In this document: positions 7,097-64,000 of the stretch, piece after piece
How positions within the stretch are numbered: position 1 is the first letter of the stretch
Layout: each line of letters opens with the position of its first letter
NCBI RefSeq assembly: GCF_046119375.1
Contig: NW_027362762.1
Location: forward strand, 262,942,001 to 263,006,000
Source of the DNA: Phyllobates terribilis
Taxonomy: Eukaryota
DNA length: 64,000 nucleotides
Direction: 5' to 3'
Notes under the pieces: generated by a model
Database searches by the model: none
What the model saw: the letters and a program-made list of their open reading frames with translations, nothing else
Told to the model about the DNA's origin: nothing
Program-made: the position numbers and the translations under genes

Positions 7097-7188
7097 CATG
7101 GTTCCCGTTGAGCCCCACGGCCTTCGCTCTCTGAGACGTTTTCCAGTGAATACGTGCATTAAAAATAAATTAAAAAAAATATATATAT

Positions 7189-11589: not shown

Positions 11590-14500
11590 CCATTCAATAC
11601 TTACTGATACTTACTCTCTTTAAGCTATGTTTCTGTTTGTTTTCACTCTCTCCCCAATAGTCCTCAACTTTCTACTAACCCCCCTAATCCCTGCACCTAG
11701 TAATAAACTCTTCATCTCTCCCTCCATCCTCCCCATCCATCTCACCTCCTCCTCAGAACTATTCCTCAATATTCACTCCTGTATCTCCAAACACAGACAG
11801 ACACTTCATGCCCTCTCCTGCTCCCACCTGCTAACAATTTCCCTGCTACTTCTCACTGTTGGCTACATCCCTCCAAGTCCTGGTCCTCCTCACCACATCC
11901 CCACAGTCACTTCCACCTTCTATCTACGATCTATCACAAACTCTCGCAACCTTTCTAACCTCATAGCCATTCACCCAGTCCCCAATTCCCCAGTCGCACT
12001 AACAGGATCTCTATGGAACGCTTTCTCCGTCTGCAACAAACTTCCCTACATTCATGATCTTTTCATCACTAACAAACTTTCCTTCCTTGCCATCACCGAA
12101 ACCTGGCTCACCTCCTCTGAAAAAGCCTCACCAGCTGCACTCTTGTACAGCAGATTCCACCTTTCCCATACCCTCTGCCCCCGCAGCAAACATGGTGGAG
12201 GCGTAGGTTTTCTCCTGTCCGATACTTGCACCTTCACCCAAATCCCACTGCCATCCTCCGTTACTCTCCCCTCTTTTGAGGTTCACTGTGTGCGCATCTA
12301 CTCCCCCTCCAACCTCCAACTGGCTGTCATTTACCGCCCCCCAGGGCCAGCCACCACCTTCTTCAACCACTTCACCACCTGGCTGCTTCATTTCCTTTCC
12401 ACTGACATTACCACTATCATCATGGGCGACTTCAACATCCCCATTGACACATCCCACTCATCTGTCTCTAAACTCCTATCCCTCACTTCCTCCTTCGGCC
12501 TTGCTCAATGGTCTTTCTCAGCCACTCACAAAGATGGCCACACACTGGACCTTGTCTTCACCCGCCTCTGTTCCCTATCAAACCTCTCTAACTCTCCTCT
12601 CCCTCTTTCTCACCACAACCTACTTACATTCTCTGCCCTCTCCTCTCCAGGTCCACAATCCCCACTTCACAAAATTGCCCACCCTCGCAGAAATCTCAAA
12701 CACCTTGACCTATACTCACTCTCTGATTCCCTCCTCTCTCTTACAGATATAAATTCCTTACACAATTCAGATGTTGCTGTTGCTTTATATAACACCACAA
12801 CAGCTGCAGTGTTAGAACCTTGCTGTTAGGTTTTTTTTCCTTTGCTGGTCACATGACCTTGTTGGCCTATTTAATCCTGCTCCGCCCTTCTGGCTTTGCT
12901 GGACTTCATTGTATATCTACTTTCTAGCTAGCCTGTGCTCTGTATCTAGCTCTGTTAGTTTGCTTGGTCTACGGACCTCTATGTTCTATCTATTTTGTTT
13001 GTTCGTCTGTCTGCTACTATTTCTGTTAGGAGGTGTCCCATATTCCTCCCAGTCCTTAGTACTTGTAGGGATTCCCTCCCCACATCTATAGGTCCCCGTA
13101 CAGACTAGATTAGGACTTTAGCAGGTCTGATCGCAGGATCAGGTTCCCTGTTACATCGTAGGGATTCAGCTGAGTCCTATAGTAGGGACAGATCTCCTCT
13201 CTTTCCTTAGCTTTGGTAGCAGAACATAACATGCAGCTCTCGATTCAGTCGCCCCTCTCACACATACCAAAGCTTGCACAATCAAAAGGCAACCCTGCCA
13301 CACCAACCTGACTAAAGAACTGGGATGGGCCTCCATGGTTGCTGAGTGAAGATGGAAAAGGTCCCATTCCAACGAGCACTTCATTGCATTCAAACAATTC
13401 CTCACTATTTTCAAGTCCAAATTCACTGCAGCAAAACAAACCTACTTCCTATCCTCCCTGTCTCACAACCCTAAACAGCTATTCAACACTTTCAATTCTC
13501 TCCTCCATCCCCCAGCGCCTCCTCCCTCTCCTCTCAGCTGAAGAATTTGCTTCATTCTTCAAGCAGAAGATTGACATCAGACAAAGCTTTTACCTAAAGT
13601 TCCCACAGCCCCTTCTCATATCTACTCAACCATCATCATCCAAAACCAACTTCTCCAACATTACAGAAGATAAAGTTTCCTCTTTACTCTCCAAATCACA
13701 CCTCACCACCTGTGAACTTGACCCAATCCCATCCCACCTCATCTCTAACCTTACCAGTCTTCATCCCAACCCTAACCCACCTCTTCAACCTATCACTAAC
13801 AACTGGTGTCTTCCCCTCATGTTTCAAACATGCCTCAATCACACCCATCCTCAAAAAGCCCACCTTGACCCATTCTCTCTGACTAGATATCGCTCCATAT
13901 CACTTCTCCCCTGTGCCTCAAAACTACTGGAACAACACGTCCACCTTGAACTGTCCTCCCACCTCTACTCCTGCTCCCTCTTCGACCTTTTACAAGCTGG
14001 CTTCTGACAGCATCACTCCACTGAAACTGTCCTGACTAAAGTCACCAACGACCTACTAACCGCCAAATCCAAGTTACACTACTTTGACTTCCTCCTCCTG
14101 GACCTGTCATCTGCCCTCGACACAGTGGACCCAATTACTACAGACTCTCATCTCTTGGCATCACGGACTTGGCCCTATCTTGGATCTCTTCATACCTAAC
14201 AGACAAGACATGCAGCATCTCCCACTCACACACCACCTCCTTATCTCACCCCATATCTGTCGGTGTTCCCCAAGGCTCAGTTCTATGGCCCCTTCTCTTC
14301 TCCATCTACACCTTTGGCCTGGGACAGCTCATAGAGTCTCATGGCTTTCAGTATCACTCCTATGCTGATGACACACAGATCTATATCTCTGGACCTGATA
14401 TCAACTCCTTACTAACCAGAATCACACAATGCCTGTCTGCTATTTCATCCTTCTTCTCTGCTAGATTTCTAAAACTTATCATGGATAAAACAGAATTCAT

Positions 14501-16260: not shown

Positions 16261-16926
16261 GGACTGACAATAAAACATTCCAAAACTAAGCTAAATTGAA
16301 TTTTCCTGGAAGAAATGTCAAGAAACATTCTTTGAAGGGTCATGACTTGTATAGAAGGCCAAATAAATTAGAAAAAAAACTATAAAACACACAGCAGGAT
16401 CTTTAGTATAAAAACCAGACTTGCCAATGTAACCACTTAATCCTTGCAAGCTTCAACACAATGTTCACAAGATAGACAGCAGCAGTGGTCGCTGTTATGT
16501 TCTGCTACCAAAGCTAAGGAAAGAGAGGAGATCTGTCCCTACTATAAGACTCAGCTGAATCCCTACGATGTAACAGGGAACCTGATCCTGCGATCAGACC
16601 TGCTAAAGTCCTAATCTAGTCTGTACGGAGACCTATAGATTTGGGGAGGGAATCCCTACAAGTACTAAGGACTGGGAGGTATATGGGACACCTCCTAACA
16701 GAAATAGTAGCAGACAGACGAACAAACAAAATAGATAGAACATAGAGGTCCGTAGACCAAGCAAACTAACAGAGTTAGATACAGAGCACAGGCTAGCTAG
16801 AAAGTAGATATACAATGAAGTCCAGCAAAGCCAGAAGGGCGGAGCAGGATTAAATAGGCCAACAAGGTCATGTGACCAGCAAAGGAAAAAAAACCTAACA
16901 GCAAGGTTCTAACAGTACCCCCCCTT

Positions 16927-19900
16927 CTAAGAGGATCCTCCGGATCCCCTAGGACCAGGCTTATCAGGAAATCTCCTGTGAAACGCTCTGATAAGTCTGG
17001 ACGCGGAAACATCATCTGACCTCACCCAAGAGTTATCCTCGGGTCCGAAACCTTTCCAGGCCACAAGATACTGCAAACTACCTCTATACCGTCTAGAGTC
17101 AAGGATGCGAGAAATTTCATATTCCCCGTCCTCCACCACCGGAGGAACAGAGGCAGAGGCGTCACCATCCGACACAAGAGCTTTTTTTAACAGAGAGACA
17201 TGAAAGACCGGATTAATTCTCCAGGAGGTAGGAACCTCCAACCTAACAGCAGATTGGTTGACAACCTGAAGCACCTTAAAGGGCCCTACAAACTTGGGAC
17301 CCAATTTCTTAGAAGGAATCCTCAACCGCAGATTCCTAGAGGACAACCAAACCATGTCACCAACAGCGAACAAAACCTCCTGTCGTTTCCTATCAAAGTA
17401 GTCTTTAGATTTTCTGTTGGCCTCCTGAAGATTACCACGCACATCCGTCCAAACTCTTTCCAAATCACCGGCTATGGGAGAAAAACTGCGAGACAAGGCA
17501 TCCGCCTTAACATTCTTAGTACCAGGGATGTAAGTAACGGAGAAATTAAACCGCGAGAAAAACAGTGCCCACCTAGCCTGACGGGCATTCAGGCGCTTGG
17601 CAGCGTCAAGATATATCAGATTTTTATGATCCGTAAGAACCTGAACGGGAAATTCCGCACCTTCCAAGAAGTGGCGCCAGTGTTCAAATGCGAGTTTAAT
17701 AGCCAATAATTCCCGATTACCAATATCGTAATTCAATTCAGTCTCCGAAAATTTTTTTGAAAAAAATGCACAGGGATGTAATCCATCCCCGTTATCCTGA
17801 GACAATACTGCGCCAACCCCCACAGAGGAAGCATCAACCTCAACCAAAAACGGCCTAGTAACATCAGGCTGCATAAGGATGGGAGCAGAGGTGAACCTCT
17901 CCTTGAGATACACAAAAGCTTCAATGGCCTCAGAAGACCACTGAACCGCATCAGCACCTTTCCTGGTGAGATCAGTCAGAGGTTTGACAATACTAGAAAA
18001 ATTTTTTATGAATTTTCTATAGTAATTGGCGAAACCCAAAAACCTCTGTATCGATTTCAAACCAATAGGCCTAGGCCATTCCTGCACAGCCCGAACCTTA
18101 ACCGGATCCATCTCAAAACCTTTGCTGGAGATAATGTAGCCCAAAAAACTAATTCTCTGTACAGCGAACTCACATTTCTCCAGCTTAGCAAAAAGCGAAT
18201 TGTCCATTAATAACTGTAATACCTCACGCACGCTCCGCCAATGAGACTCCAGATCTGGCGAATAAATCAAAATGTCATCCAAATACACAACCACATTTTT
18301 ACCGATCAAAGGTCTAAGGATGTCATTAATCAGATTCTGAAAAAATGCAGGAGCATTAGTAAGACCAAAAGGCATAACCAGATTCTCAAAATGACCCACA
18401 GGAGTGTTAAAAGCAGTCTTCCATTCATCACCCTCCTTCATGCGCAACAGATTGTATGCCCCCTTAAGGTCAATTTTAGAGAACCACTTGGCCCCCAATA
18501 ACTGGTTAAACAGATCAGGAATCAATGGCAGTGGGTAAGGATTGCGTACCGTAATTTTGTTAATCTCACGAAAATCCAGACAAGGACGTAAACCGCCGTC
18601 CTTTTTTTTTACAAAAAAAAATCCAACCGCCACAGGAGACTTAGAGGGCCTAATGTGACCGGCGGCCAAACTTGTCTGTATGTATTCCTCCAAAGCCTTC
18701 CTCTCAGGAATAGTAAGGTTAAATAAACGACTTTTAGGAAGAGTCGCTCCAGGGACAAATTCAATAGAACAATCATAGTCTCTATGAGGAGGCAAAACCT
18801 GCGATTCTTTCTCAGAAAAAACTCTCCAAAAATCCTGAATAGGAACAGGCAATTCTCCCCTATCCAAAGCTGCAATACGCCCGTTACAACACTTGTCATA
18901 ACATTTATGGCTCCAGGATTTAATTTCACTGGTAGACCAATCCAGTACAGGATTGTGAAATTTTAACCAGGGCAAACCCAATATTACTGGAGAAGGCAAG
19001 TTATTCAACACTACCAAATCCAATTTCTCATGGTGAACACCATTAATAGTGAGAGGAAATTCACTGACCTTGAGAGTAATATTCTTCAAAGGGGAGCCAT
19101 CCACAGAAACCACAGCAATGGGGGATGATAAAGGTTCAGGTTTTAAATTGAGTTTTTCCACAAATCCCCCATCAATAACATTCAGTGTAGACCCGCAATC
19201 AACAAACACCCGAAATTCCATTAATTTTTCCTGAGCAATCGTGGAAGCAGCTAAAAATATACCCTTGGAATTTAAACAGGCAATACGGGCGTGACTGACC
19301 ATTTTTTTTTCTTTCTTCATACGAAGCTCACAGCCTTTAATCAAATGACCAGATTTCCCGCAATAGAAACACAAGCCTTCTGAAAAACGACGGTGTTTTT
19401 CTTGAGAGCGAGGTGCCACCGATCCAATCTCCATCGGTTCACCACTGTTAGTACACACATTATCATAACCAGAAACTGACATAGCAGAGGATTTGCTCTC
19501 ATTAACCCTAGCACGCAGTCTTCTATCCACCCGTATAGCTAATTGCATAGCCTGTTGCAAATCCTCAGGTGTAGGATAAGCAATTAGCAGGTCTTTAACC
19601 TTTTCACTGAGCCCAGCAAGAAATAGACTTTTCAGAGCAGAATCGTTCCACCCTGTTTGAGTGGACCAACGACGAAAATGTGTACAATATTTTTCCATAT
19701 TACCTGATCCTTGTTTTAAACGTCTCAACTCAGTCTCAGCTGATGCCACACGGTCAGGATCATCATATAATAGTCCTAAAGCAGAAAAAAAACTATCCAC
19801 TGATCTGAAGCATGTATCACTAGGTTGCAAAGAAAAGGCCCACTCCTGAGGCTCTTTGCGCAAAAGTGACATTATGAACCCTACGCGCTGGGATTCATCC

Positions 19901-20109
19901 CCAGAGGACTTGGGTCTCAAACGAAAATACAATAAGCAAGCATTTTTAAATGAAAAAAATTCTCGATGTTCACCAAAAAATAAATCCGGCAAACATACCT
20001 TAGGCTCCAAGAAATATGCTCCAGGACAGTTACTCACGTGCTGACGGAGCTCGGCCACTTCCAGAGAGAGTCCCTGCAGGTGTTTAGCCAAATCCTGAAC
20101 CGACACCAT
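16927..20109 (-). CDS. Gag-protease-RT-RNase H-GPY/F-chromodomain polyprotein, 1060 aa, lacking IN zinc finger and catalytic core
   Basis: Gag (RVGFIMSLLRKEPQEWA), CCHC CFYCGKSGHLIKGC, PR FVDCGST, RT YLDDILIY, and RNase H VDASSVGVGAVL..TDHKNL..KADALSR. This is joined directly to VGDMVWLS..GPKFVGPF..FHVSLLK and the chromodomain YEISRILDSR..YLVAWKGFGPEDNSW. Confidence 0.93.
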   Translation of the reverse strand: MVSVQDLAKHLQGLSLEVAELRQHVSNCPGAYFLEPKVCLPDLFFGEHREFFSFKNACLLYFRLRPKSSGDESQRVGFIMSLLRKEPQEWAFSLQPSDTCFRSVDSFFSALGLLYDDPDRVASAETELRRLKQGSGNMEKYCTHFRRWSTQTGWNDSALKSLFLAGLSEKVKDLLIAYPTPEDLQQAMQLAIRVDRRLRARVNESKSSAMSVSGYDNVCTNSGEPMEIGSVAPRSQEKHRRFSEGLCFYCGKSGHLIKGCELRMKKEKKMVSHARIACLNSKGIFLAASTIAQEKLMEFRVFVDCGSTLNVIDGGFVEKLNLKPEPLSSPIAVVSVDGSPLKNITLKVSEFPLTINGVHHEKLDLVVLNNLPSPVILGLPWLKFHNPVLDWSTSEIKSWSHKCYDKCCNGRIAALDRGELPVPIQDFWRVFSEKESQVLPPHRDYDCSIEFVPGATLPKSRLFNLTIPERKALEEYIQTSLAAGHIRPSKSPVAVGFFFVKKKDGGLRPCLDFREINKITVRNPYPLPLIPDLFNQLLGAKWFSKIDLKGAYNLLRMKEGDEWKTAFNTPVGHFENLVMPFGLTNAPAFFQNLINDILRPLIGKNVVVYLDDILIYSPDLESHWRSVREVLQLLMDNSLFAKLEKCEFAVQRISFLGYIISSKGFEMDPVKVRAVQEWPRPIGLKSIQRFLGFANYYRKFIKNFSSIVKPLTDLTRKGADAVQWSSEAIEAFVYLKERFTSAPILMQPDVTRPFLVEVDASSVGVGAVLSQDNGDGLHPCAFFSKKFSETELNYDIGNRELLAIKLAFEHWRHFLEGAEFPVQVLTDHKNLIYLDAAKRLNARQARWALFFSRFNFSVTYIPGTKNVKADALSRSFSPIAGDLERVWTDVRGNLQEANRKSKDYFDRKRQEVLFAVGDMVWLSSRNLRLRIPSKKLGPKFVGPFKVLQVVNQSAVRLEVPTSWRINPVFHVSLLKKALVSDGDASASVPPVVEDGEYEISRILDSRRYRGSLQYLVAWKGFGPEDNSWVRSDDVSASRLIRAFHRRFPDKPGPRGSGGSS

Positions 20110-20147
20110 GATGGAACAAAAAAAATCTTTCCTTAGAGAATTTACAG

Positions 20148-20156
20148 GCTGGACTT
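20148..20156 (-). promoter_or_regulatory. Putative self-priming primer-binding site of element B
   Basis: Minus-strand AAGTCCAGC lies 2 nt after the 5' LTR and is complementary to GCTGGACTT, which starts at 20492, 30 nt after TATTTAA (20522). Confidence 0.72.
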
Positions 20157-21590
20157 ACTGTTATGTTCTGCTACCAAAGCTAAGGAAAGAGAGGAGATCT
20201 GTCCCTACTATAAGACTCAGCTGAATCCCTACGATGTAACAGGGAACCTGATCCTGCGATCAGACCTGCTAAAGTCCTAATCTAGTCTGTACGGAGACCT
20301 ATAGATTTGGGGAGGGAATCCCTACAAGTACTAAGGACTGGGAGGTATATGGGACACCTCCTAACAGAAATAGTAGCAGACAGACGAACAAACAAAATAG
20401 ATAGAACATAGAGGTCCGTAGACCAAGCAAACTAACAGAGTTAGATACAGAGCACAGGCTAGCTAGAAAGTAGATATACAATGAAGTCCAGCAAAGCCAG
20501 AAGGGCGGAGCAGGATTAAATAGGCCAACAAGGTCATGTGACCAGCAAAGGAAAAAAAACCTAACAGCAAGGTTCTAACAGTCGCTTCCCTAGACACGGC
20601 ACATCATGGTTTGATATGAGCACCCAGTGCCAGAGGCGAAGCCATCCACAATTTCCATATCTCAGGAATTGTATTTGGTAGACTGGCTGCTGTGGGGATT
20701 CCTACTAACTTGAGAGCATCGTCGTCAATGTTCACAAGGTAGACAGCAGCAGTGGTTGCTCCCCTAGACAACGAGCAAACTTCTTCGTGATGGTAGAAGC
20801 CACCATCTCCTTAGCTTGCTGCTTGGTACTTTTCTGTGGGAATGAGCTTGGCTCCAAGCAGCCAGGCATATGCAGCGAATTGCACGTCATGGTTTGGTAT
20901 GAGTACCCAGTACCAGAGGCGAAGCCATCCACAATTTCCATGTCTCAAGAATTTTATTTGGTAGACTGGCTGCTGTGGGGTTTCTACTCACTTGGGAGCA
21001 TCGGTAGTCAAAACAGGAAGCGTTTCCATTTAAAGGTCCATTCTGGTTTATTGCAGTGTCATGAACTAGCCATAAGCAATGGAAAATAAACAGCCTTCTG
21101 TTCAGGCAAACAAAGTAAACAGTTCTTTAGGCAAAGTCTATTGAGAACCAGTCCTAGTCACACGGCTGTAAAGCATCCAGTACACCGGCTCAGTTTGCAG
21201 ATACCACACAGAAGGACCTCTTCCTCCTCACACAGAGACCATGTGTCAAACAATGGACTCCATTTTACCTAGCTAACCACACCCAGAGGTGATGTATGTG
21301 GGTAACCAGACCCGCCCATCTCTTTGGCTACCTGTAAAACCTGGGCCTAGATGCACCAAACAATCCTCTTATTGCTTATCTGCTGTAGACCAATATTCCA
21401 GGATTATATCACAGGCAACAGCCATCTTTGTGACACATACCTACCATCCACTATGTGTCCATTAGCCACCTTACATTGCCAAAACATTAGTTTCTCACAA
21501 AGGAGCTGAAGACACTGAGTGGCAGTAGGTGCAAGTTTCTCCAGCATGAGCTGTTTGTTAAATATCAGAGGGAGAACAGAATTGGGCTTT

Positions 21591-24561: not shown

Positions 24562-24609
24562 TATATAAGGTGTGTTTAATTATTAGGCAACTTCCTTTCC
24601 TTTGGCAAA

Positions 24610-25620
24610 ATGGGTCAGATGAGAGATTTGACAGGCTCTGAAAAGTCCAAAATTGTGAGATGTCTTGCAGAGGGATGCAGCAGTCTTGAAATTTCCAAAC
24701 TTTTGAAGCGTGATCACCGAACAATCAAGCGTTTCATGGCAAATAGCCAACAGGGTCACAAGAAGCGTGTTGGCCAAAAAAGGTGCAAAATAACTGCCCA
24801 TGAATTAAGGAAAATCAAGCGTGAAGCTGCCAAGATGCCATTCGCCAGCAGTTTTGCCATATTTCAGAGCTGCAACGTTACTGGAGTATCAAAAAGCACA
24901 AGGTGTGCAATACTCAGGGACATGACCAAGGTAAGGAAGGCTGAAAAACGACCACCTTTGAACAAGAGACATAAGATAAAACATCAAGAATGGGCCAAGA
25001 AATATCTTAAGACTGATTTTTCAAAGGTTTTATGGACTGATGAAATGAGAGTGACTCTTGATGGGCCAGATGGATGGACTAGAGGCTGGATCAGTAAAGG
25101 GCAGAGAGCTCCACTCCGACTCAGACGCCAGCAAGGTGGAGGTGGGGTACTGGTATGGGCTGGTATCATCAAAGATGAACTTTTGGGACCTATTCGGGTT
25201 GAGGATGGAGTGAAGCTCAACTCACAGACCTACTGCCAGTTATGGAAGGCAACTTCTTCAAGCAGTGGTACAGGAAGAAGTAGGTATCGTTCAAGAAAAA
25301 CATGATTTTCATGCAGGACAATGCTCCATCACATGCATCTAGCTACTCCACAGCGTGGCTGGCTAGTAAAGGTCTAAAAGAAGAAAAAATAATGACATGG
25401 CCCCCTTGTTCACCTGATCTGAACCCCATAGGAAACCTGTGGTCCATCATAAAATGTGAGATCTACAGGGAGGGAAAACAGTAAACCTCTCGGAACAGTG
25501 TCTGGGAGGCTGTGGTGGCTGCTGCACGCAATGTTGATCGAAAACAGATCAAGCAACTTACAGAATCTATGGATGGCAGGCTGTTGAGTGTCATCATAAA
25601 GAAAGGTGGCTTTATTGATC
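24610..25620 (+). pseudogene. Tc1-B transposase with frameshift and stop
   Basis: MGQMRDL...VLWTDEMRVTLDGPDG...VWAGI, frameshift near 25230, then MQDNAPSH...SPDLNPIGNLW. Confidence 0.9.
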
Positions 25621-30959: not shown

Positions 30960-33785
30960 AGAACACCACTATTGAACACAGAGCAGTGAGAAAAAGTTAT
31001 TGGTTGGATAGCAGATAATGCTTCCAGTCACTTAGCCACCACCATCACCACCCTGTCTTCCACACGGTCAAGTCTCAGTAGCCTTGATCTTGGACTGCAT
31101 ATTCCTCACCCTGATCCTCCTTCCTCACACCATGCCGAGTGCCCAGAGACAACTGTTCTCACACTTGGATACTTCGAAGAGCTGTTCACTTTTCCATTTA
31201 TAGATTCGGGCCTCTCGCCCGGTCCACTTGAAGCAGGGGCAAGAGGAGATCGCATGTAGCAATGCCCAAGTGTCACAAGAGGTGGACGATGATGAGACAC
31301 AATTGCCAGAAAGTCAGGAGGAGGACCAGGGTGCGGAACGAGATGGAAGTTGCCAGTACAACTGTTAGGTCTTCCCGAGTCTGGTTGTTTATTAAAGACT
31401 CTGCCGATAACCCCAAAAAGGCCATTTGCACCACCTGCCAGGCCAGCATCAGCAGGGGTAGCAAAACTACCAGCCTGACCACCACCAGCATGATCAGGCA
31501 CATGGCAGCAAAACACCCGACTTTGTGGGACATACCCCAGGGTCCAGGAACAATGTCTGCGGGTGGCACCACTGCTTCTTCCGCTGTTGTGCATGCAAGC
31601 CAATCCCCTGTACATGGTGCATGCGAAGATGCCTCCTGCCTTGCACCTGTCAATGCACACTCTCAAGTAGCAGCATCAGGAAGCACGTCCACGTCCTTGT
31701 TTCAGCGTAGCATTCAGTTGTCCATATTCCAGTCCTTGGAATGCAAGCACAAATACGCAGCCAACGCCCCACAGGCCACAGTACTAAATTCTCACATTTT
31801 GCGACTGCTTGCGCTCGAAATGTTGCCTTTTAGGCTCATGGAGACGGAAACTTTCTGCAACCTGATGGCGGCGGCCATCCCTCGGTACTCATTCTCCAGC
31901 GGCCACTATTTCTCCCGGTGTGCCGTCCCCGCATTGCACAAGCACGTGTCCCACAACATTAGCCATGCCCTCAACAATGCACTTAAAGGGAAAGTCCTCC
32001 AAACCACCGACATGTAGACAAGTGCTTGTGGGCAAGGATGGTACATCTCACTGATGGCACACTGGGTTAACATAGTGAAAGTCGGGACCCAGTCGGACCT
32101 TGGGACGGAACACATCCTCCCGATGCCAAGGATTGCTGGCCCTAGGTCAATCAGGGTTGCCCTCACAGTCTACAGCTCCTGCATCTCATCCTCCTCAGCC
32201 TTCTCCTCATCTTCAGCCTCCATCTCTGAAATTACCACATCAGTCACAAGCTGGAAGCTCTGCAGCAATGCCTCAGCTAAGCGGCAACAGTCTGTGCTGA
32301 AGCTAATATGCTTAGGTGAAAAAACGCACAATGCTGAAGAGTTGTGGACAGCTCTGAAAGAGCAGGCAAATCTGTGGCTCATATCGCTGAACCTGCAGCC
32401 TGGCATGGTCATGTGTGACCAAAACTTACCTGGAGCTGCTGGATCTGCTTGACAAAGAACGCCACCTGTGTGCCCATTTTAGAAAGTCACCCACAGCTTC
32501 CGCCGCCCTTGCCGTGCTTTTGCAGCTTCCAGCTCACTGACTGGTGTGTAATGTCCCCACGCATTGGAACTCTACACTGCAGATGTTGGGAAGGATTTGT
32601 GAGCAGAAGAGGGCAGTTGTTGACAACCAGCATCAACAAGGCCGTCAATATTCAGTTCAGACTGCACACATAAGACCTCAGGAGTGGACATGGATGTCAG
32701 ATATCTGTACCATCCTCCAAAACTTTGAGGACTCCACCAAGATGGTGAGTGGCGATGATGCCATAATTAGCATCACCATCCCACTTCTCTGTCTTCTGAA
32801 ATGCTCTCTGCTCACAATCAAAGAGGTTGCATTGCAAGCGGAGCACAATGAGAAGGAGCAAGGAACCATACAGGCTGATTACACACTGCCCAGCCTCATC
32901 TCATCCCAACGTGGATTGGGTGACACTAAGGAGGAGGAGGAAGAACAGGAGCTAGTTTTCTGCACTATAGACGGTACTACCTACACAACTGTCATACCGT
33001 CTGTTCAGCGTGGATGGCCTGAGGACAGGGAGAAGGAGGAGAGCATGGTCAGTCATCCTCTTGATGAGGACATGGACGTCTTGCCTGTTAGCAGTCTGGC
33101 ATGCATGGCTGAGCTTATGTTACGCTGACTTTCCCGTGACCCTCGCGTTCTCAAAATTTTGGGTGACATCTATTTCTAGTTTGTGATACTTGTAGACCCA
33201 CGCTACAAGGAGAACTTTATATCTCTTATTCCTGAGGTGGACAGGTCTACAAAAATGGGGCAGCACCAAAAGGCCCTTGTTGTGGAACTATTAAAAAAAT
33301 TCCCATCTGAAAACGCTGGCGGCAGAGGTCACAGTTTGTTGGACAACCAAGGAGTACAGCCGAGAGAGACGCAACTCCAATCCAGCAGAGGCAGGGAAAC
33401 ACTGTCAAATTTCTGGGAGAGTTTTCTCAGCCTCTCTCATCAAACAGGCCCTGAGGCGCGGGGTACTCTCACAAGGAGTGCAAAGTTTGGGAAGATGCTG
33501 AGGGAGTACCTTACCAACCGTACCAACGTCCTCTGTGATTCTTCTGTGCCTTATAATTATTAGGTATCCAAGCTGGACATGTGGAATGAACTGACTCTCT
33601 ATGCCTTGGAGGTCCTGGCCTGCCCTGCCGCTAGCGTTTTATCAGAGTGGGTTTTTAGTGCCGCTGGTGGAATTATAACTGATAAGCGCATCCACCTGTC
33701 AGCTGAAAATGCTGACAGGCTGACTCTTATAAAAATGAACAAGGGCTGGATTGGGCCAGACTTCTCAACAAAACTGAATGATAGC
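30960..33785 (+). pseudogene. hAT transposase pseudogene
   Basis: BED finger (VWLFIKDS..AICTTCQASISRG..MIRHMAAKH), MLPFRLME, TTD, THWNSTLQML, LVDPRYK and CPAASVLSEWVFSAAG. Several stops and frameshifts. Confidence 0.9.
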
Positions 33786-48575: not shown

Positions 48576-48691
48576 ACCCAGCCAATAGTTTTGGCCTAAT
48601 ACCACAGTTTGGCCACTCAGCTCTGCTCGGTTACCATCCATTGTTTTTTTGTGCAAACAACTCCAGAGTTGTGAATTAGTTAACCACCAAA

Positions 48692-51600
48692 ATGAATGGA
48701 AAAAGGCCTGCTGCTGGTGGAAAGGGGAATAGGCGTGTTGGGAAGGGGAAAAAAGGTTGTGTCCGTGGGGTAGGTGCAGAAGAAAGACCATCTTCCAGCC
48801 AAACTAAAATGTCTACTTCTTTTAGCGGACAATGTGATAAGATCCCTTTCTTACGGCCACGCCAATCGCTACAAATTCCAGATGAGGCACAAAAACAGCA
48901 GGTGCTTCAACGGATATCAAGTGCTCCTTTAAGTGGGCTCTCCTCCACATCAACTTCAACATCACAAATACTCCAGTCCTCAAAGGTGTCACCCAAATCG
49001 CACTTGCTTCCTCACAGCTCCCAAATCTCCAGCTGCCCGTCTGAGTATGAGGTAGAACAGATGGTTGAGTCTGCAGAGCTGTTTACTCATACTATAGCCT
49101 GGGAATCAGAGGTCGACTCCAGCGCTTCTGTGAATCCAGACGAGGAAATGATCTGCACTGATGCCCAGAATCTTTATGAGTCGGATCCAGGACCAGACGC
49201 AGAAGGTTCTGACCATAATGTAGACCCTCATTCCCAAACTGTAACTCCTGTTGGTGGAGACAATGAGGAAGACGATGATAAGACTCAAATACCTGATTGG
49301 AGCGACAACTTTGTTTTTTTGTCAGGGCAGGAACAGGTTGGCTCTGAGGACGACGGGTGTGATAACGCACAGGGTGATGATGATGAGGTCGGAGATCCCA
49401 CTTACTGTCAACCCACAGTCAGCCAAGAGATGAGGTCAGCAGAGGAGGTGGAGGAAGATGCTAGTGACGACGAGGTCAGGTTGCGCCTTCCTGGACAGAG
49501 ACGTAGTACTGGAAGCACGTCAACAACTGCATCCTCAAACACAACTCTGCCTCTCACCACAAGTCGTGGTGGCTCTTCAGGTCGCATGGGTGCTAAGCCT
49601 TGCATAGCCTGGGCATTTTTTCAGATCGATAAAGATGACCCAACTCGTGTTATCTGTAACATTTGTCAGCAAAAGCTAAGTAGAGGCCAAAAATACATAG
49701 TTTGAGTACTTCATGCATGAACCGGCACATGGACATGAAGCATAAGTTGCAGTGGGAAGCTCAGTGTGCTACAATGCGGTCTAGCCGGCCGGGCCAACCA
49801 CCGTCTGCCATATCTTGTGCATCCGCGGCCTCTTCATCCTCTGTGACTGGGGGGACAGCAGTCACACCTGTTTTGGGGCGCAGACCTGCCACCTCTTTAC
49901 CCGCAACAGCCAGCGTGATTGGCAGGTCATCATTTTCTTTGGAGGTGGTAACACCAGCTGGTCTTGAGCGCTGTCCGACATCGATAGCACCACCTTTGGA
50001 TCAAGGCAACCTAACATGTCCGCCTGCATCTTCCTCACAGACCGGCAGTTTGCCGGGGACACCCTTATCAACCCCGTCTAAGCACAATAGCCAGCCCTCG
50101 GTCCCTCAGATATGGACAAGTAAAAGACCATTTCCTCCTAGCCATGAGAAAGCTAAGAGGTTGAATTTCACCATCTGCAAGCTCTTGGCTACAGAAATGC
50201 TGCCTTTCCGCCTGGTGGACACAGAGGATTTTCGAGACCTTATGTCCGTCGCAGTGCCCCAGTACCAGATGCCCAGTCGGCACTACTTCTCAAAGAAAGG
50301 TGTGCCTGCGCTCCACCAGCATGTCGCACACAACATCACCGCTTCTTTGAGAAACTCTGTGTGTGACAGGGTGCATTTCACCACAGACACTTGGACGAGT
50401 AGGCATGGACAGGGGCGTTACATGTCGCTGACTGGGCACTGGGTAACTATGGTGACAGCAGGACAAGGGGCTGCTGTCCGAGTCTTGCCGTCCCCACGAG
50501 TTGTGCGTCAATCCTCTTTATGTCATTTTTCCTCCACTGCTTCTGCCTCCTCAACCTCCTCTCGGTCTTCCACCTGCACATAAAGCCTGTCTGGTCATGC
50601 CACAAGCTTTCTAACTGCGCAGAAGGGATCCTGCACACCTCCTTACTATGCTGGCAGTAGGGCTCAACGTCATCAGGCGGTTTTTACATTGAAATGTCTG
50701 GGAAATATGAGTCACACAGCTGAGGAGTTGTGGTCAGCTCTGGAGAACCAATTTCATGAATGGTTGTCTCCACTGGACCTGAAACCAGGGAAGGCCGTGT
50801 GCGACAATGCTGCAAACCTGGGTGCGGCCCTTCGCCGGGGCAATGTCACACATGTGCCTTGTATGGCTCACGTGTTGAACCTGGTTGTCCAGCAATTTTT
50901 AGCCCACTATCCCAGACTAGATGGCCTTCTGCAGAGGGCACGGTCGCTGTGTGCTCACTTCCGCCGTTCGCATCCCGCAGCTCAGCGACTTACATCTCTA
51001 CAGAAGTCGTTGGGCCTGCCACTTCACCGGCTAAAATGCGATGTGCCTACCCGGTGGAATTCAACTCTGCACATGTTGCAGCGACTGTGGCAGCACCGAC
51101 AAGCCCTGGTGCAATACGTTCTGACGTATAGCCTGGGCCAACGAGATTCAGAGGTGGGGCAAATCACGCTGGAGGAGTGGTCTCAGATCAGGGACTGATG
51201 CACCCTTCTGCACAGTTTTGAAATGGCGACGAAGATGTTTAGTGCTGACGATGCCATTATCAGCATGACTATTCCGGTGATTTACATGCTGGAGCACATG
51301 TTAAACAGAATTCGGAGTCAGGTGGTGGCACAAGAGGAGGTGGAGGAAGTAGAGGAGGAGGAGTTGTATGCGGAAGGGCTAACATCTGCAAGGTCCAGAC
51401 GGTCGGCAGCACCAAGGCGGCAGGCATGTGAGGGTGGGGGAGATGGTTTAACCAGGGCGCATGGTAGCAGCCAAACTAGTGAGGAAGGTGCAGGAGCCCA
51501 GGAAGAAGTGGAGGACGAACTGATGGAAGACTCATCAGATGAGGGAGACCTTGATCACATTTCTGTTGTGCGAGGTTGGGGGGAGAGGACAGAGGAAGGA

Positions 51601-52370
51601 AGCATGATTGTTACCTCGCCACCAACACAACAGGGACTTGGTGCTCCTGGATGCGCAACACACATGAGTGCCTTCTTGCTGCACTACCTGCAACATGACC
51701 CTCGAATTGTGAGAATTAGAAATAATCCTGACTACTGGGTTGCCACACTGTTAGATCCCCGGTACAAAAGTAAATTTGCTGAAATTATTCCTGCCATAGA
51801 AAGGGATGCACGCATGCAGGAGTATCAGCAGAGACTGTTGCAGAATCTTACATGTGCTTTTCCACAAAATACCAGTGGTGCACGTAGTGAATCTCACAGT
51901 TCCAACTTGCCAACCGTGGACCGTCAAGTGTTCAGCACTCAAACCGTAACAGAACCACAGTATCTGCAGGTAACATCAATTTTGCGGAATCATTTCACCA
52001 CTTTTTTAGCCCATCCTTTGCAAGGCCACAGGAGACAAGAAGTCTGACACATAGTCAACGCCTAGAGACGATGGTACAGGAGTATCTCCAAGTAAACATT
52101 GAAGCCACGACTGTGTCACTGGACCCTTGCTCTTTTTGGGCTTCCAATCTGGATAAATGGCCGGAGCTAGCCACTTACGCCTTGGAGATCTTGTCATGCC
52201 CCGCAGCCAGCGTTCTGTCTGAACGTGTGTTCAGCGCTGCTGGTGGTGTGCTGACAGATAAGCGCACGCGGCTCTCCACTGATAATGTAGACAGACTCAC
52301 GTTCATAAAGATGAACAAATCATGGATCCGAAACGACTTTTCTACCCCTGTGTCATCCTGGGGAGAGTAA
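48692..52370 (+). pseudogene. Near-complete hAT transposase with few disruptions
   Basis: Basic N-terminus, BED finger (AWAFF..VICNICQQKLSRG / MNRHMDMKH), FTTDTW, VCDNAAN, PCMAHVLNL, PTRWNS, LLDPRYK and CPAASVLSERVFSAAG. A few stops and frameshifts. Confidence 0.92.
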
Positions 52371-58450: not shown

Positions 58451-59775
58451 TATAAAAAAGTATTTACTGTAAATATACATGAAAACTAAAAAAAAAAGAT
58501 AGCTAAACAAGGTGATGACATTTTATTTTACACCCACTATATCTCACAAAAAGTAATCTATATGGAACCATTTTGCTGAAAAAGATGCATTAATAAATCA
58601 ACTTTTCCGTAAAGATGCGATTTGATTTTGGCAAAACATTTTACAAATGAGCAGATCTGACAAAATTCGAATTTGCTAAATCTCGCACATTTTCCCACAA
58701 AATGCAATTTGCAGTTATTCTCCATGAACTGAATGTCCCTTATTGTGCTCTGGGACCTCTTCTTTCCCCTGTCGTGAGCTGCATCTCCTGGACTATTCAC
58801 TCTAGGCCGGGACTTCTGGCAGTGACCAGGTCTCGGAGATCAATACTTGTACATTCTGAGATCACGCATGTGAGACGGACAGTGAACTCTGAGGCTTGGT
58901 CACTCCCAGAAGTCTAGGCCATGAGTGAACAGGCTGGAGCTACAGGCCAGGACTTCCAGGCCTCAAATGTCATTACATGTCACACGCCCATGATGTTGTG
59001 ATTTGCTTCATGCAGTGACTTCAGAGGACTAGAGTGTACAGGCTTGGAGATGCTGCTTGCAATAAGGGAATGAAGAGATAGCTGTGAGGACTAGTTGGAG
59101 GGCAATGTGCAGCAGAAGGTCTGGACAGGTGAATGGTGAGTATAATTACTTTTTTAAACTTTTGTTGTCTGTCTATAGTTCAGCAAAATCACAGCCATCC
59201 ACTATTATGCTGAATCCATGTAAAGCGAATTTTCAAACACCATATTTTCAAAAATGTGCACTTTTTTAATATTCAAGTACAATTTAATTACAATCAAATA
59301 AATTGGCTCATCTCTAGAATTGAGAAAACCTAGCCACCCACAAGTCAATCAATAATTATTGCATATTGGCCCAAGCTCACAAAGGTTACAAGGTTTATTG
59401 TAATATCAAACTCATTTAGATATTCATTACAGAAAATCTACATTTGAAGAAGCCGAGCGCTGTGCTAATGATTTTTAAAGTCTGAAGACAATAAATGCTA
59501 ATTTCATACTAATGAGGCCTTAAAATGTCTATTTATAATGATTTCATAATTCCTCAACTCCATAAATCACTAAAAGAATCTTCAATAATTCATTAGGAAA
59601 ATTACAAAAAAAATTTGTATAATTCTGTTTATTTAGTTAAAAGACACAAAGTGTCTTTTAACTAAACAGAATTAAATGAACTGAAAAATGCCTGCTATAT
59701 GTAAAAAAAAAAGAAAAAAAGCCATATGACAATTATGTAGTAACATATCATGTGACTTTTTATTATAATGCCCAT

Positions 59776-60942
59776 TGTAACGGGTCCGGGAGGCGGAACC
59801 TCTGAGCTACTATACAAGGGGGCGGCCCTTGTAAGGGAGCGGGTGGCAGTCTCTGGATGAATGGACAGGGAGATACGGCAAGTGATCAGGGCAGTCTCTG
59901 GGTGAACGGACAGGGAGATACGGCAAGTGATCAGGGCAGTCTCTGGGTAAGGGGTAGGTACGACCTGTGATGGCAGAGCCTCCGGGTAGGCTAGCAGGCA
60001 GATGGTAGATGGGTGCTCCCAGGTGAGCAAGCGAGAGTCTCTGGAATAGCAGGTGGTCACGGCACGTGACGGCGGGGCCTCCGGGCTGGCAGGCAGGCAG
60101 GTAACGGAGAAGCGCTCCCAGGTGAGCGGGCAAGAGTCTCTGGAATAGCTGGTGGTCACCGCACGTGACAACGGGACCTCCGGGCTGGCAAGCAGGCAGG
60201 TAACGGAGATGCGCTCCCAGGTGAGCGGGCAAGAGTCTCTGAGATAGCTGGTGGTCACAGCACGTGACAACGGAGCCTCCGGGCTGGCAAGCAGGCAGGT
60301 AACGGAGAAGCGCTCCCAGGTGAGCGGGCAAGCTGGTCCATAGACAGACTGACCGGAGTAGTAAAGCAGACCGTCGGACCTCAGGCAAGCAGGCAGGTAG
60401 CTGATATGCGCTCCCAGGTGAGCGGGCAGGCTGGTCCTTAGACAGACTGACAGGAGTAGTAAGGCAGACCGTCGGACCTCAGACTGGCAGACAGGTAACA
60501 AGTATTCAGGCAGGAATCAGGCAGGTAACTGGCAGGTAACTGGCAGGTAACTGGCAACGGGACCTGAGGGCTGAAGCACAGGTGAGACACAGGTGCAAAC
60601 AACATTGCTCGGGCACCTCCATTTTGGAGGAGGTGCCTTTTATATGATGAAGTCCTCCGGCCATTGGCCGGGGACTCTTTAGGGCGGCGCGCGCGGCCCC
60701 TTTAAGAGGAGGGGAGCACGCGCGCGCGCGCCCTAAGCACAGGGGCCGGGAAGGAGCGCGCGCCGAGAGCAGAGCAGGAGGAGGACGCCGGGACGGAGCG
60801 CGCGCTGACAGCAGAGCGGGGAGAGGACGCCGGGCAGGAGCGCGCGCTGACAGCAGAGCGGGGAGAGGACGCCGGGCACGGAGCAGAGCGGTGAGGGGAG
60901 CAGCGTCCCTGCCTAGCAGAGGGCAGGGACGCCAGCGCTACA
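59776..60942 (-). repeat. 3' LTR of element C (1167 bp) with 99-bp and ~40-bp internal repeats
   Basis: TGTAACGGG...GCGCTACA. Minus-strand TATAAAA at 60644-60638. Confidence 0.93.
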
Positions 60943-63185
60943 GTACCCCCCCCTTTAGGCCCCCCCTTTTTTAGGCCAGACAGAAATTTAGCTAGGATGA
61001 GAGGGGCATGGATGTTCTCCCGGGGCTCCCACGTTCTCTCCTCAGGACCAAACCCCCTCCAATCTACCAGAAAAAAGGTCTTTCCTCTTACCCTTTTGCT
61101 GGCAAGAATGTTCTCTACCTCAAACTTGTCCTCAGCAGAAACCAGAGCAGGAGGCGTACCTGTAGACTTAGAAAAAGAGTTAAGTACCACAGGTTTGAGG
61201 AGAGATACATGGAAGGAGTTAGGGATCCGTAAGTTGGCCGGGAGTTTCAATTTATAGGTTACCGGGTTGATCTGACCGATGACCACCAGTGGGCCGATGA
61301 ACCGAGACCCTAACTTATAGGAAGGGATCTTGAGTCGGACATATTTGGACGAGAGCCAGACTTTATCCCCAGGACGGAATTGAGGAGGGTCCATCGCTAA
61401 ATGCTGCCAGGGGGCAGCAGGTACTGGCAGAGGAAGAAGGCGGCCGGCCGACAGGTGTCTCGGAACTTTGTTGCGGGCGCAGGACACACAGGCAGAAACA
61501 AAGTCCATAACATCCTTGTGCAGGTTAGGCCACCAGTAGTGTCGGGTAATAAGCTGGAGGGTCTTTTTCCGACCGGCGTGGTCAGCTAGTTTAGACGAAT
61601 GACCCCAGTGTAGGATTCTCTCCCGATCAGGTACCGATACGAACGTCTTACCAGGAGGGAGACAATTTAGACTCACGGGAGCCACCTGCATTACTCTGGC
61701 GGGATCGATGGGGCAGTCACATGGTCTATGAGGTGGTGATGTCTCTGCCTCCTCCTTAACAAAGACATCAGCACTAGACCAATAAGGAATCGGAAGTCCA
61801 GGTAGATTAGCTGGGATAGGAGAGGGACGGACGGAATGGACGGGAACCAGGCAGGTTTTATGACAGGCCTGTCCCCAGTGAAGGACTTCTCCGGTTTGCC
61901 AGTCAAGCACGGGTGCATGTCTCTGGAGCCAAGGCAGACCTAGCAAGAGGGCGTGAGGGAGACCAGGCAGAACGTGAAAGGAGATACTCTCTGAATGCAG
62001 CATTCCCACCTGCAGAGTAATGGATTCGGTGATGAATTGGATGGGGCGAGGTAAGAGGCCCCCATCCACGGCAACAACAGACAAGGGTACAGCCAGAGGT
62101 TTGGTGGGGATGCGGAATTTCTCCACCAGGGACTGTGAAATAAGATTTCCGGCTGCTCCAGAGTCAAGTTGGGCTAGTTCGGAATAACGATTCTCCCCGC
62201 AGATGATTGAGACTGACAACAGCAGGGATGGAGAGGATTTATTTTTGTCTAGATCGACCCCTCTGAGTGAACCTAGATACAGGCGTTCTCCCGACCTCTC
62301 CGGGCAGGCACGGATCAGATGCTCCTTACTGCCACAGTAGAAGCAGCTCCCCTCGGCACGGCGGAAATCCTGACGGGATTTGACCATCTTGGTCTGGTCG
62401 ACCTGCATAGGCTCAGGAGAGTGTACCTGTGGAGAAACGGAAGGAATGACGGGTTCCTGGAAAGTAGGAGCTAGACGTGGAATCCTTCTCTCACGGGTGA
62501 CCTCTTTGGCACGCTCCTGGAACCGTAGGTCAATCCGGGTGGCAAGGGTTATTAGATCATCGAGAGTGGTAGGAATGTCCCGACCAGCAAGTTCATCTTT
62601 AATACGGCCGGACAGACCCTCCCAGAAGACGGATACCAGGGCTTCGTTATCCCAGGCCAGCTCCGAGGCAAGGGTACGGAACCGTATGGCATATTGGCCC
62701 ACGGTGAGGCTTCCCTGACGGAGGCGAAGCAGAGAAGATGCGGATGAGGTCCTCCGTCCGGGTTCGTCGAAGGCTTTCCGGAAAGCCATGAGAAAGGCAG
62801 GCAAGTCGGACACCAGGGGATCTCCTCTCTCCCATAGAGGATTTAGCCAGGCCAGGGCCTCCCCGGTGAGATGGGACATGATAAAGGCAATTTTGGCTCG
62901 GTCGGAGTTAAACTGGTGGGATAATAGTTCAAAATGCAGGGTGCACTGATTTATGAAGCCCCGAGCCAGGACGGAGTCGCCTCCGAAGCGAGGAGGTGCA
63001 GAGAGCCGGGGTCCGGAAAAGGATACCATGGTACTGGCGGAGGTTGTTGGTGGATCAGACAGAGTGTTCAGGCGAGTATTAACATTCCGCAGGTGACCCA
63101 GGATGGTCTCCTGTTGGGACCTCTGACGGGACAGTTCAAGACAGAGGTCCGAGAGCGAGGGAGCTTGGGTGCCACCGGGTTCCAT
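60702..63185 (-). CDS. Gag-protease-IN zinc finger-GPY/F-chromodomain fusion, 827 aa (RT, RNase H and IN core deleted)
   Basis: Gag (DRAKIAFIMSHLTGEALAW), CCHC CFYCGSKEHLIRAC, PR LDSGAAGNLI, RT start PPHRPCDCPID, IN HHCC (HSSKLADH..CVSC), PWQHLAMD joined to PPQFRPGDKVW, and the chromodomain FEVENIL..LVDWRGFGPEERTWEP. Reads through the PPT into the 3' LTR. Confidence 0.92.
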   Translation of the reverse strand: MEPGGTQAPSLSDLCLELSRQRSQQETILGHLRNVNTRLNTLSDPPTTSASTMVSFSGPRLSAPPRFGGDSVLARGFINQCTLHFELLSHQFNSDRAKIAFIMSHLTGEALAWLNPLWERGDPLVSDLPAFLMAFRKAFDEPGRRTSSASSLLRLRQGSLTVGQYAIRFRTLASELAWDNEALVSVFWEGLSGRIKDELAGRDIPTTLDDLITLATRIDLRFQERAKEVTRERRIPRLAPTFQEPVIPSVSPQVHSPEPMQVDQTKMVKSRQDFRRAEGSCFYCGSKEHLIRACPERSGERLYLGSLRGVDLDKNKSSPSLLLSVSIICGENRYSELAQLDSGAAGNLISQSLVEKFRIPTKPLAVPLSVVAVDGGLLPRPIQFITESITLQVGMLHSESISFHVLPGLPHALLLGLPWLQRHAPVLDWQTGEVLHWGQACHKTCLVPVHSVRPSPIPANLPGLPIPYWSSADVFVKEEAETSPPHRPCDCPIDPARVMQVAPVSLNCLPPGKTFVSVPDRERILHWGHSSKLADHAGRKKTLQLITRHYWWPNLHKDVMDFVSACVSCARNKVPRHLSAGRLLPLPVPAAPWQHLAMDPPQFRPGDKVWLSSKYVRLKIPSYKLGSRFIGPLVVIGQINPVTYKLKLPANLRIPNSFHVSLLKPVVLNSFSKSTGTPPALVSAEDKFEVENILASKRVRGKTFFLVDWRGFGPEERTWEPRENIHAPLILAKFLSGLKKGGPKGGGTVALASLPSARQGRCSPHRSAPCPASSPRSAVSARSCPASSPRSAVSARSVPASSSCSALGARSFPAPVLRARARVLPSS

Positions 63186-63198: not shown

Positions 63199-64000
63199 TG
63201 TAACGGGTCCGGGAGGCGGAACCTCTGAGCTACTATACAAGGGGGCGGCCCTTGTAAGGGAGCGGGTGGCAGTCTCTGGATGAATGGACAGGGAGATACG
63301 GCAAGTGATCAGGGCAGTCTCTGGGTGAACGGACAGGGAGATACGGCAAGTGATCAGGGCAGTCTCTGGGTAAGGGGTAGGTACGACCTGTGATGGCAGA
63401 GCCTCCGGGTAGGCTAGCAGGCAGATGGTAGATGGGTGCTCCCAGGTGAGCAAGCGAGAGTCTCTGGAATAGCAGGTGGTCACGGCACGTGACGGCGGGG
63501 CCTCCGGGCTGGCAGGCAGGCAGGTAACGGAGAAGCGCTCCCAGGTGAGCGGGCAAGAGTCTCTGGAATAGCTGGTGGTCACCGCACGTGACAACGGGAC
63601 CTCCGGGCTGGCAAGCAGGCAGGTAACGGAGATGCGCTCCCAGGTGAGCGGGCAAGAGTCTCTGAGATAGCTGGTGGTCACAGCACGTGACAACGGAGCC
63701 TCCGGGCTGGCAAGCAGGCAGGTAACGGAGAAGCGCTCCCAGGTGAGCGGGCAAGCTGGTCCATAGACAGACTGACCGGAGTAGTAAAGCAGACCGTCGG
63801 ACCTCAGGCAAGCAGGCAGGTAGCTGATATGCGCTCCCAGGTGAGCGGGCAGGCTGGTCCTTAGACAGACTGACAGGAGTAGTAAGGCAGACCGTCGGAC
63901 CTCAGACTGGCAGACAGGTAACAAGTATTCAGGCAGGAATCAGGCAGGTAACTGGCAGGTAACTGGCAACGGGACCTGAGGGCTGAAGCACAGGTGAGAC
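63199..64000 (-). repeat. 5' LTR of element C (partial)
   Basis: Direct repeat of 59776-60577. Confidence 0.95.

Follow-up and report, generated by a model that had tools for sequence, protein, structure and literature searches.

Apparent stepwise dismantling of a predicted -1 frameshift signal in one sub-lineage of a Ty3/gypsy retrotransposon family of Phyllobates terribilis

The Gag:Pol ratio is commonly regarded as essential, but a single frame serves many LTR elements, and a crossing between the two states is seldom seen. Single-frame Gag-Pol LTR retrotransposons include fission-yeast Tf1 and many plant chromoviruses. Here we ask how Gag became joined to Pol in a retrotransposon of Phyllobates terribilis, and what the fusion may have meant for the element. 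The locus lies in a stretch of 64,000 nt (referred to below as the window; NCBI RefSeq assembly GCF_046119375.1, contig NW_027362762.1, positions 262,942,001 to 263,006,000). The initial annotation, made from the sequence alone, had read TCG GGA GAA CGC CTG TAT CTA GG on the minus strand and had taken the G at 62288 for an extra base. This reading was confirmed at positions 62295-62270; the extra base sits just after the CCHC knuckle, inside one open frame.

The window family is by structure a chromovirus-type Ty3/gypsy element, with paired TG...CA LTRs, a short target-site duplication and a C-terminal integrase chromodomain (Table 1), and its full-length relatives have the motif order Gag-protease-RT-RNase H-integrase and no env. 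Among chromoviruses, the family is presumably sushi-like. The frame of the window copy runs Gag-knuckle-protease-integrase N-terminus-SH3-chromodomain, and a domain search of its 868 codons found no reverse transcriptase (RT), RNase H or integrase core. In a structure-chain search, the capsid sequence of its gag matched the PEG10 capsid chain at 1.9e-08. Compared with the seven-base copies (those without the extra base), its gag has a 39-nt in-frame deletion at 63034/63033. The two LTRs (locus L091) are nearly identical, with 2 mismatches and one 11-nt gap between them, and the element is flanked by a 5-nt target duplication; it is therefore a recent insertion. The LTR (59776-60942) is made of tandem units of about 11, 42, 98 and 99 nt, the numbers of which differ among copies, and the fused frame runs 80 codons into the 3' LTR. 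The family also occurs in tandem arrays in which neighbours share one LTR (L170-L172, G000:C1 at about 187.48-187.50 Mb; L173-L175; L312); one array consists of five units, with the target duplication at its outer ends.

Table 1. Features of the fused retrotransposon, in window coordinates.
Feature	Position	Strand	Remarks
Chromodomain-bearing Ty3/gypsy LTR retrotransposon		(-)	total length 4579 nt
5' LTR, 1156 nt	63199..64000	(-)	locus L091; TGTA...TACA ends; starts outside the window, at position 64354 of its numbering
3' LTR, 1167 nt	59776..60942	(-)	purine run just before
Target-site duplication, 5 nt	59771..59775	(-)	ATGGG; matching copy upstream of 5' LTR
Single open frame	63308-60702	(-)	868 codons
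ATG-initiated part of the single frame	60702..63185	(-)	ATG at 63185; 827 aa; stop within 3' LTR
gag: capsid and CCHC knuckle	62298..63185	(-)	PF03732 and PF19259 above cut-off; knuckle at about 62345-62298, zf-CCHC match weak
Former slippery site (predicted), GGGAGAAC	62285..62292	(-)	non-run base is G 62288
TAG stop codon of gag in the seven-base copies	62273..62275	(-)	out of frame in the window copy
Remnant of predicted H-type pseudoknot, eroded	62231..62279	(-)	stem 1, 62279-62271 with 62254-62246; stem 2, 62263-62258 with 62236-62231
Aspartic protease	61920..62174	(-)	DSGA motif intact
Junction of 1323-nt in-frame deletion of RT and RNase H	61705..61711	(-)	873 exact copies
Integrase zinc-binding domain	61464..61628	(-)	PF17921, 4e-17
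Junction of 597-nt in-frame deletion of integrase core	61388..61389	(-)	442 exact copies; defines type A, the subfamily of the window copy
Integrase SH3 domain and chromodomain	60984..61370	(-)	PF24626 and PF00385 (1.4e-11); chromodomain structures matched

Several other elements share the window. A second, unrelated chromovirus lies on the minus strand at about 16490-20580; its ORF (20154-16927) encodes Gag, protease, RT, RNase H and chromodomain in a single frame of 1075 aa, and lacks the zinc and core domains of the integrase owing to an in-frame deletion of about 885 nt. Among 22 matches, this copy alone spans the junction of that deletion. On the plus strand, a 459-aa frame (7174-8553) begins in Gag-like fashion (DUF4939, below cut-off) and continues into a long tail of proline/serine-rich repeats; downstream of it lies a LINE-type endonuclease frame (11624-12829). 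A Tc1-like transposase remnant and BED-finger (hAT-like) frames were found at 24580-25305, 31232-32017 and 48680-52047, and a minus-strand segment at about 56320-56200 resembles a decayed piece of small-subunit rRNA.

The extra base is not peculiar to the window copy. Exact pattern counts over the genome (10.6 Gb) gave 896 copies of the octamer GGGAGAAC within its flanks and 11,663 copies of the seven-base form, whose pattern permitted A, C or T at one place (all 100 listed matches read GGGAAAC); a looser seven-base pattern gave 14,253 copies, and reversed-pattern controls gave no matches. All 40 scored matches to the window site were 100% identical over 301 nt. Contigs from two public studies also span the base: the X1 contig covers 62215-62349 with 0 differences, and the X5 contig covers 62192-62349 with 1 difference and no gap. 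The initial annotation had called for a check of raw reads and other copies; the base is present in the contigs and in other copies, so the assembly error that it allowed for is not borne out. An error of assembly or sequencing, or a one-off change in a dead copy, would have some precedent in the ten other one-base insertions at the site, which are isolated and scattered over the tree; it is nevertheless refuted by the 896 copies, which occur on both strands and belong to one clade, and by the contigs of the two studies, and we regard it as hardly credible.

What the base interrupts can be read from the seven-base relatives. Twenty of these copies were fetched whole; gag stops four codons past the heptamer, with pol beginning in the -1 frame. 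Both frames are unbroken in 11 of the 20, and 18 have their own RT motif. The X_XXY_YYZ rule for slippery sites (PMC2800197) is satisfied by these relatives, with the heptamer in the gag frame and pol overlapping in -1. Such a PEG10-type G_GGA_AAC site had been postulated by the initial annotation, which named the absence of a frameshift from autonomous relatives as the finding that would count against it; the relatives have both the site and a pol in the -1 frame. According to PMC5009743, G_GGA_AAC ranks among the shiftiest heptamers, and ribosomes would be expected to slip there in the seven-base copies. A pseudoknot of 9 + 6 pairs is predicted 5 nt past the heptamer, with 98.9% of the cells paired in 12 distinct rows. 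Near-invariant third codon positions are more frequent among paired (7/8) than among unpaired positions (10/34; p = 0.004; the patterns that partly guided the choice of loci fix some of the bases concerned). The only co-varying pair, the terminal one of the stem, is A-U in 49, G-C in 3 and an A.C mismatch in 48 of 100 variant copies (hand count), and the mismatch in about half of the copies weakens the compensatory change as proof of the structure. We consider the modelled pseudoknot likely in the seven-base relatives. In the window copy, G_GGA_GAA fails the X_XXY_YYZ rule, so the slippery heptamer is absent, and the energy calculated for stem 1 is -1.6 compared with about -10.4 kcal/mol.

The order in which the signal was lost is recorded in surviving intermediates. 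Further one-base gains at the site were found at 30 loci, mostly GGGAAAAC, and 19 of these were grouped by a shortened gag start (a 24-nt deletion). The pseudoknot is intact in 19/19 of them; the 16 fetched whole are all full-length, occupy 13 distinct insertion sites and include 7 with an unbroken frame from Gag to chromodomain. In a tree built on 820 nt around the site, with the site itself left out (and L186 omitted because of its large gag deletion), a single branch (support 99/98) unites the 19 full-length GGGAAAAC loci with types A and B and excludes the 46 other rows; types A and B together are nested within it (95/92). All amplified fused copies are thus one clade. Exact matches to the junction of the 24-nt deletion were found at 23 loci, 23/23 with the extra base, which is A in 18 and G in 5. 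Each of the five G-bearing loci is full-length and encodes 1393-1478 aa in a single frame from which no catalytic motif is missing, and these GGGAGAAC copies already have the two changes that turn pseudoknot pairs into G.U. The signature of the intermediate occurs at 39 loci; among the 30 examined, RT is kept in 15 and lost in 15, the latter bearing the 39-, 1323- and 108-nt deletions. The 597-nt integrase deletion of type A covers the 108-nt one, and the exact matches to the RT and type A junctions number 873 and 442.

The intermediates on record are therefore full-length GGGAAAAC, full-length GGGAGAAC and RT-less GGGAGAAC copies. Together with the site-free tree they indicate that an extra A was gained in a full-length lineage, that A then changed to G and two pseudoknot pairs were weakened while the elements were still full-length and inserting, and that RT and RNase H were lost before the integrase deletions. 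Independent origins of the A and G forms are rejected by the tree and by the copies that share the 24-nt gag deletion. An earlier generalization, that all fused G copies lack RT (60/60 loci, of which 30 had been selected as identical to the window), was overturned by the 15 RT-bearing loci. The same RT-bearing fused copies revise the initial annotation, which had counted the fusion as a third frame-creating event: it appears to be the first event on the lineage, and it took place in a full-length element. That the extra base fuses Gag to Pol stands, but its supposed entry as a G does not, since the base was most likely gained as an A within the A-run and turned into G later. Recombination among copies is evident, and the tree is valid only for the 820 nt around the site. 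One locus (L186, the same as L212) is left unexplained by the simple order: although of type B throughout, it has older states at three sites where types A and B agree, among them an A at the slip site, and most of its capsid region has been deleted in frame. Another (L131, the same as L005), in which a type A 5' half is joined to a complete integrase in an open frame, arose by recombination with a full-length element. Losses of one base at the site, a change that leaves the frames unfused, numbered 11, and those placed on the tree are scattered.

On balance, we favour the reading that the predicted -1 signal was dismantled stepwise in one sub-lineage, and that the window copy is a late RT-less passenger, which likely spreads by means of its relatives' enzymes and whose RNA likely gains from the translation of one open frame running to the 3' LTR. 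Translation of seven-base copies would mostly terminate at the end of gag, with a smaller share of ribosomes shifting into Pol; once the extra A had been gained, Gag-Pol would become the default product. At the GGGAAAAC stage, G_GGA_AAA fits the slippery rule and may still slip (no value for its slip efficiency was found in the literature), and as the -1 frame stops 16 codons on, free Gag would be a minor product. The change from A to G would end the run and remove the residual slip. RT-less copies would be complemented in trans, and translation could benefit them in cis in two ways: Gag would be made on their own RNA and freed by the intact protease, and there would be no stop codon followed by kilobases of untranslated RNA and hence no target for nonsense-mediated decay. 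A retroviral RNA whose translation stops after gag, leaving a long 3' UTR, is reported as such a target in PMC2925335. The RT-less copies are thus likely passengers selected to translate one open frame for the sake of their own RNA; from sequence, we infer the constitutive Gag-Pol fusion in translation, and with it the expression and cis benefit of the fused copies. The changed Gag:Pol stoichiometry put forward in the initial annotation would matter in the few dozen fused full-length copies, but it matters little in the window copy because this has no RT, RNase H or integrase core.

The frames and substitutions bear on whether translation was selected. Each of the fixed deletions (24, 15 more, 1323, 108 and 489 more nt) has a length divisible by three (5/5), compared with 5 of 14 single-copy indels of at least 4 nt in 64 control copies; for the pol-internal ones alone (3/3 in frame), p is about 0.04 (hand arithmetic). 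In eight pairs of divergent full-length copies, dN/dS in Pol is 0.07-0.15. For Pol changes private to the RT-less types it is 0.66 (40 replacement, N, and 25 synonymous, S), borderline against neutrality (p = 0.07), where private was judged against 37-71 of about 12,000 relatives and imported synonymous changes can lower the ratio; L103 and L108 were left out of the dN/dS reference. Elsewhere, L169 was dropped because it did not map. Pol of type A alone has a ratio of 1.4 (17 N, 5 S, including 8 N, 2 S in the protease region), and that of type B still looks constrained (10 N, 12 S). In gag of the RT-less types, dN/dS is 0.41 (14 N, 14 S; p = 0.017), although the difference in constraint between gag and Pol is not significant (Fisher p = 0.36); the oldest shared gag changes (6 N, 2 S) look neutral. 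With the loss of RT, 12 N and 5 S were fixed in Pol, a neutral ratio. The frame is open in 54 of 61 distinct RT-less internal sequences (a sample biased toward window-like copies), and RT-less copies have expanded about twenty-fold over the fused full-length ones, with mean pairwise distances of 0.0055 in type A and 0.0082 in type B. Because all fixed deletions are in frame while the Pol remnant is near neutral, an open frame kept up without protein constraint points to a putative benefit of translation itself.

At the full-length GGGAGAAC stage, 3 of the 20 private changes fall in the 38 positions of the signal (p = 0.0008, with the target set after seeing the data), which may reflect selection against slipping or release from constraint. 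Its stem has 9 synonymous and 4 replacement changes that are absent from 71 other copies (p = 0.003); this richness in synonymous changes suggests that the proteins of the full-length stage still mattered, although import from unsampled relatives could mimic it.

The same history could also have run its course with no selection on the fusion. The lineage would then always have been complemented in trans, the extra base would have hitch-hiked, and RT-less copies would have spread because their LTR was good, their genome short or their source copy well placed. We think this unlikely but with an appreciable chance of being right, as the low distances within types A and B trace each subfamily to one or few sources and hence to few independent events, the deletion junctions lie at short repeats, and the single-copy 885-nt integrase deletion in the unrelated element of the window is in frame as well. 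Shared-versus-single selection tests within groups (run without same-flank duplicates, unplaced contigs and one tandem copy) were also not significant (p = 0.19 and 0.59), and they are underpowered. The excess of in-frame fixed deletions over the controls, the clustering of changes in the frameshift signal and the synonymous bias on the stem of the full-length GGGAGAAC stage all argue against it. Alternatively, the Pol remnant may matter as protein, with a Gag-tethered protease, the integrase ends and the chromodomain steering the packaging or integration of the passenger. The DSGA protease motif is kept in both types and the integrase D-D-E motifs in type B, the Pol of which shows the more conservative changes given above, and zinc domain, SH3 and chromodomain outlast both deletions; but type A, with its 442 copies, lost the integrase core, and its substitutions in Pol and in the protease region, like those fixed when RT was lost, make this role improbable. 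It is also conceivable, if rather doubtful, that the lineage passed through an inverted frameshift: Gag-Pol would have become the default product once the extra A was present, with free Gag made by slipping, the slip would then have been actively silenced, and the fused full-length elements would have been mobile on their own proteins, unlike engineered fusions.

Selection on the open frame of a passenger, the reading that we prefer, has a counterpart in mouse IAP 1-delta-1, the gag-pol fusion of which is reported to act in cis (PMC6466679). Both are non-autonomous, have one gag-pol fusion frame, are enzyme-deleted, have been amplified beyond their full-length source lineage and need proteins in trans, the last being presumed for the window family. 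In IAP 1-delta-1, however, a 1.9-kb deletion makes the fusion and removes part of gag, whereas in the window family a one-base gain in the slippery site of a full-length element apparently came first, and gag, knuckle and protease are kept whole; moreover, IAP is retrovirus-derived and the window family belongs to Ty3/gypsy. By analogy, the window element would work like IAP 1-delta-1, but it is not one.

The likeness to PEG10, with its G_GGA_AAC heptamer, 5-nt spacer and pseudoknot (PMC2800197; PMC11011659), extends to the heptamer after the Gag zinc knuckle, the 5-nt spacer, the pseudoknot (predicted here, and compared by layout), the protease in the -1 frame and the capsid similarity. PEG10 is a single domesticated gene that retains its frameshift, whereas the window family is mobile, has more than 12,000 copies and lost the frameshift in one branch; a domesticated gene of the PEG10/RTL type is ruled out by the 442 type A copies, the near-identical LTRs and the fresh target duplication. 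Lineage-specific loss of a frameshift fusion is described for the domesticated gene RTL3 (PMC11011659). In a 2003 survey of 51 animal elements, pol was in -1 in 28 and in +1 in 2, other arrangements being common, and engineered in-frame gag-pol fusions are stated to give inviable retroviruses (both PMC5009743); a Ty3 fusion mutant is capsid-limited, to judge from a title cited in PMC4974528. In contrast to these engineered fusions, the naturally fused full-length elements inserted again and again, and the intermediates are preserved together in one genome. No account of stepwise frameshift loss within a mobile family was found in the literature searched, which mostly excluded subscription papers.

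Four natural states of one signal thus coexist in a single genome, a few percent apart, and their slip rates and RNA stabilities are directly comparable. If our reading is right, the family would be a second and independent example of a passenger whose fused frame stayed open once its enzymes were lost, and could serve to separate selection at the protein level from selection at the RNA level.
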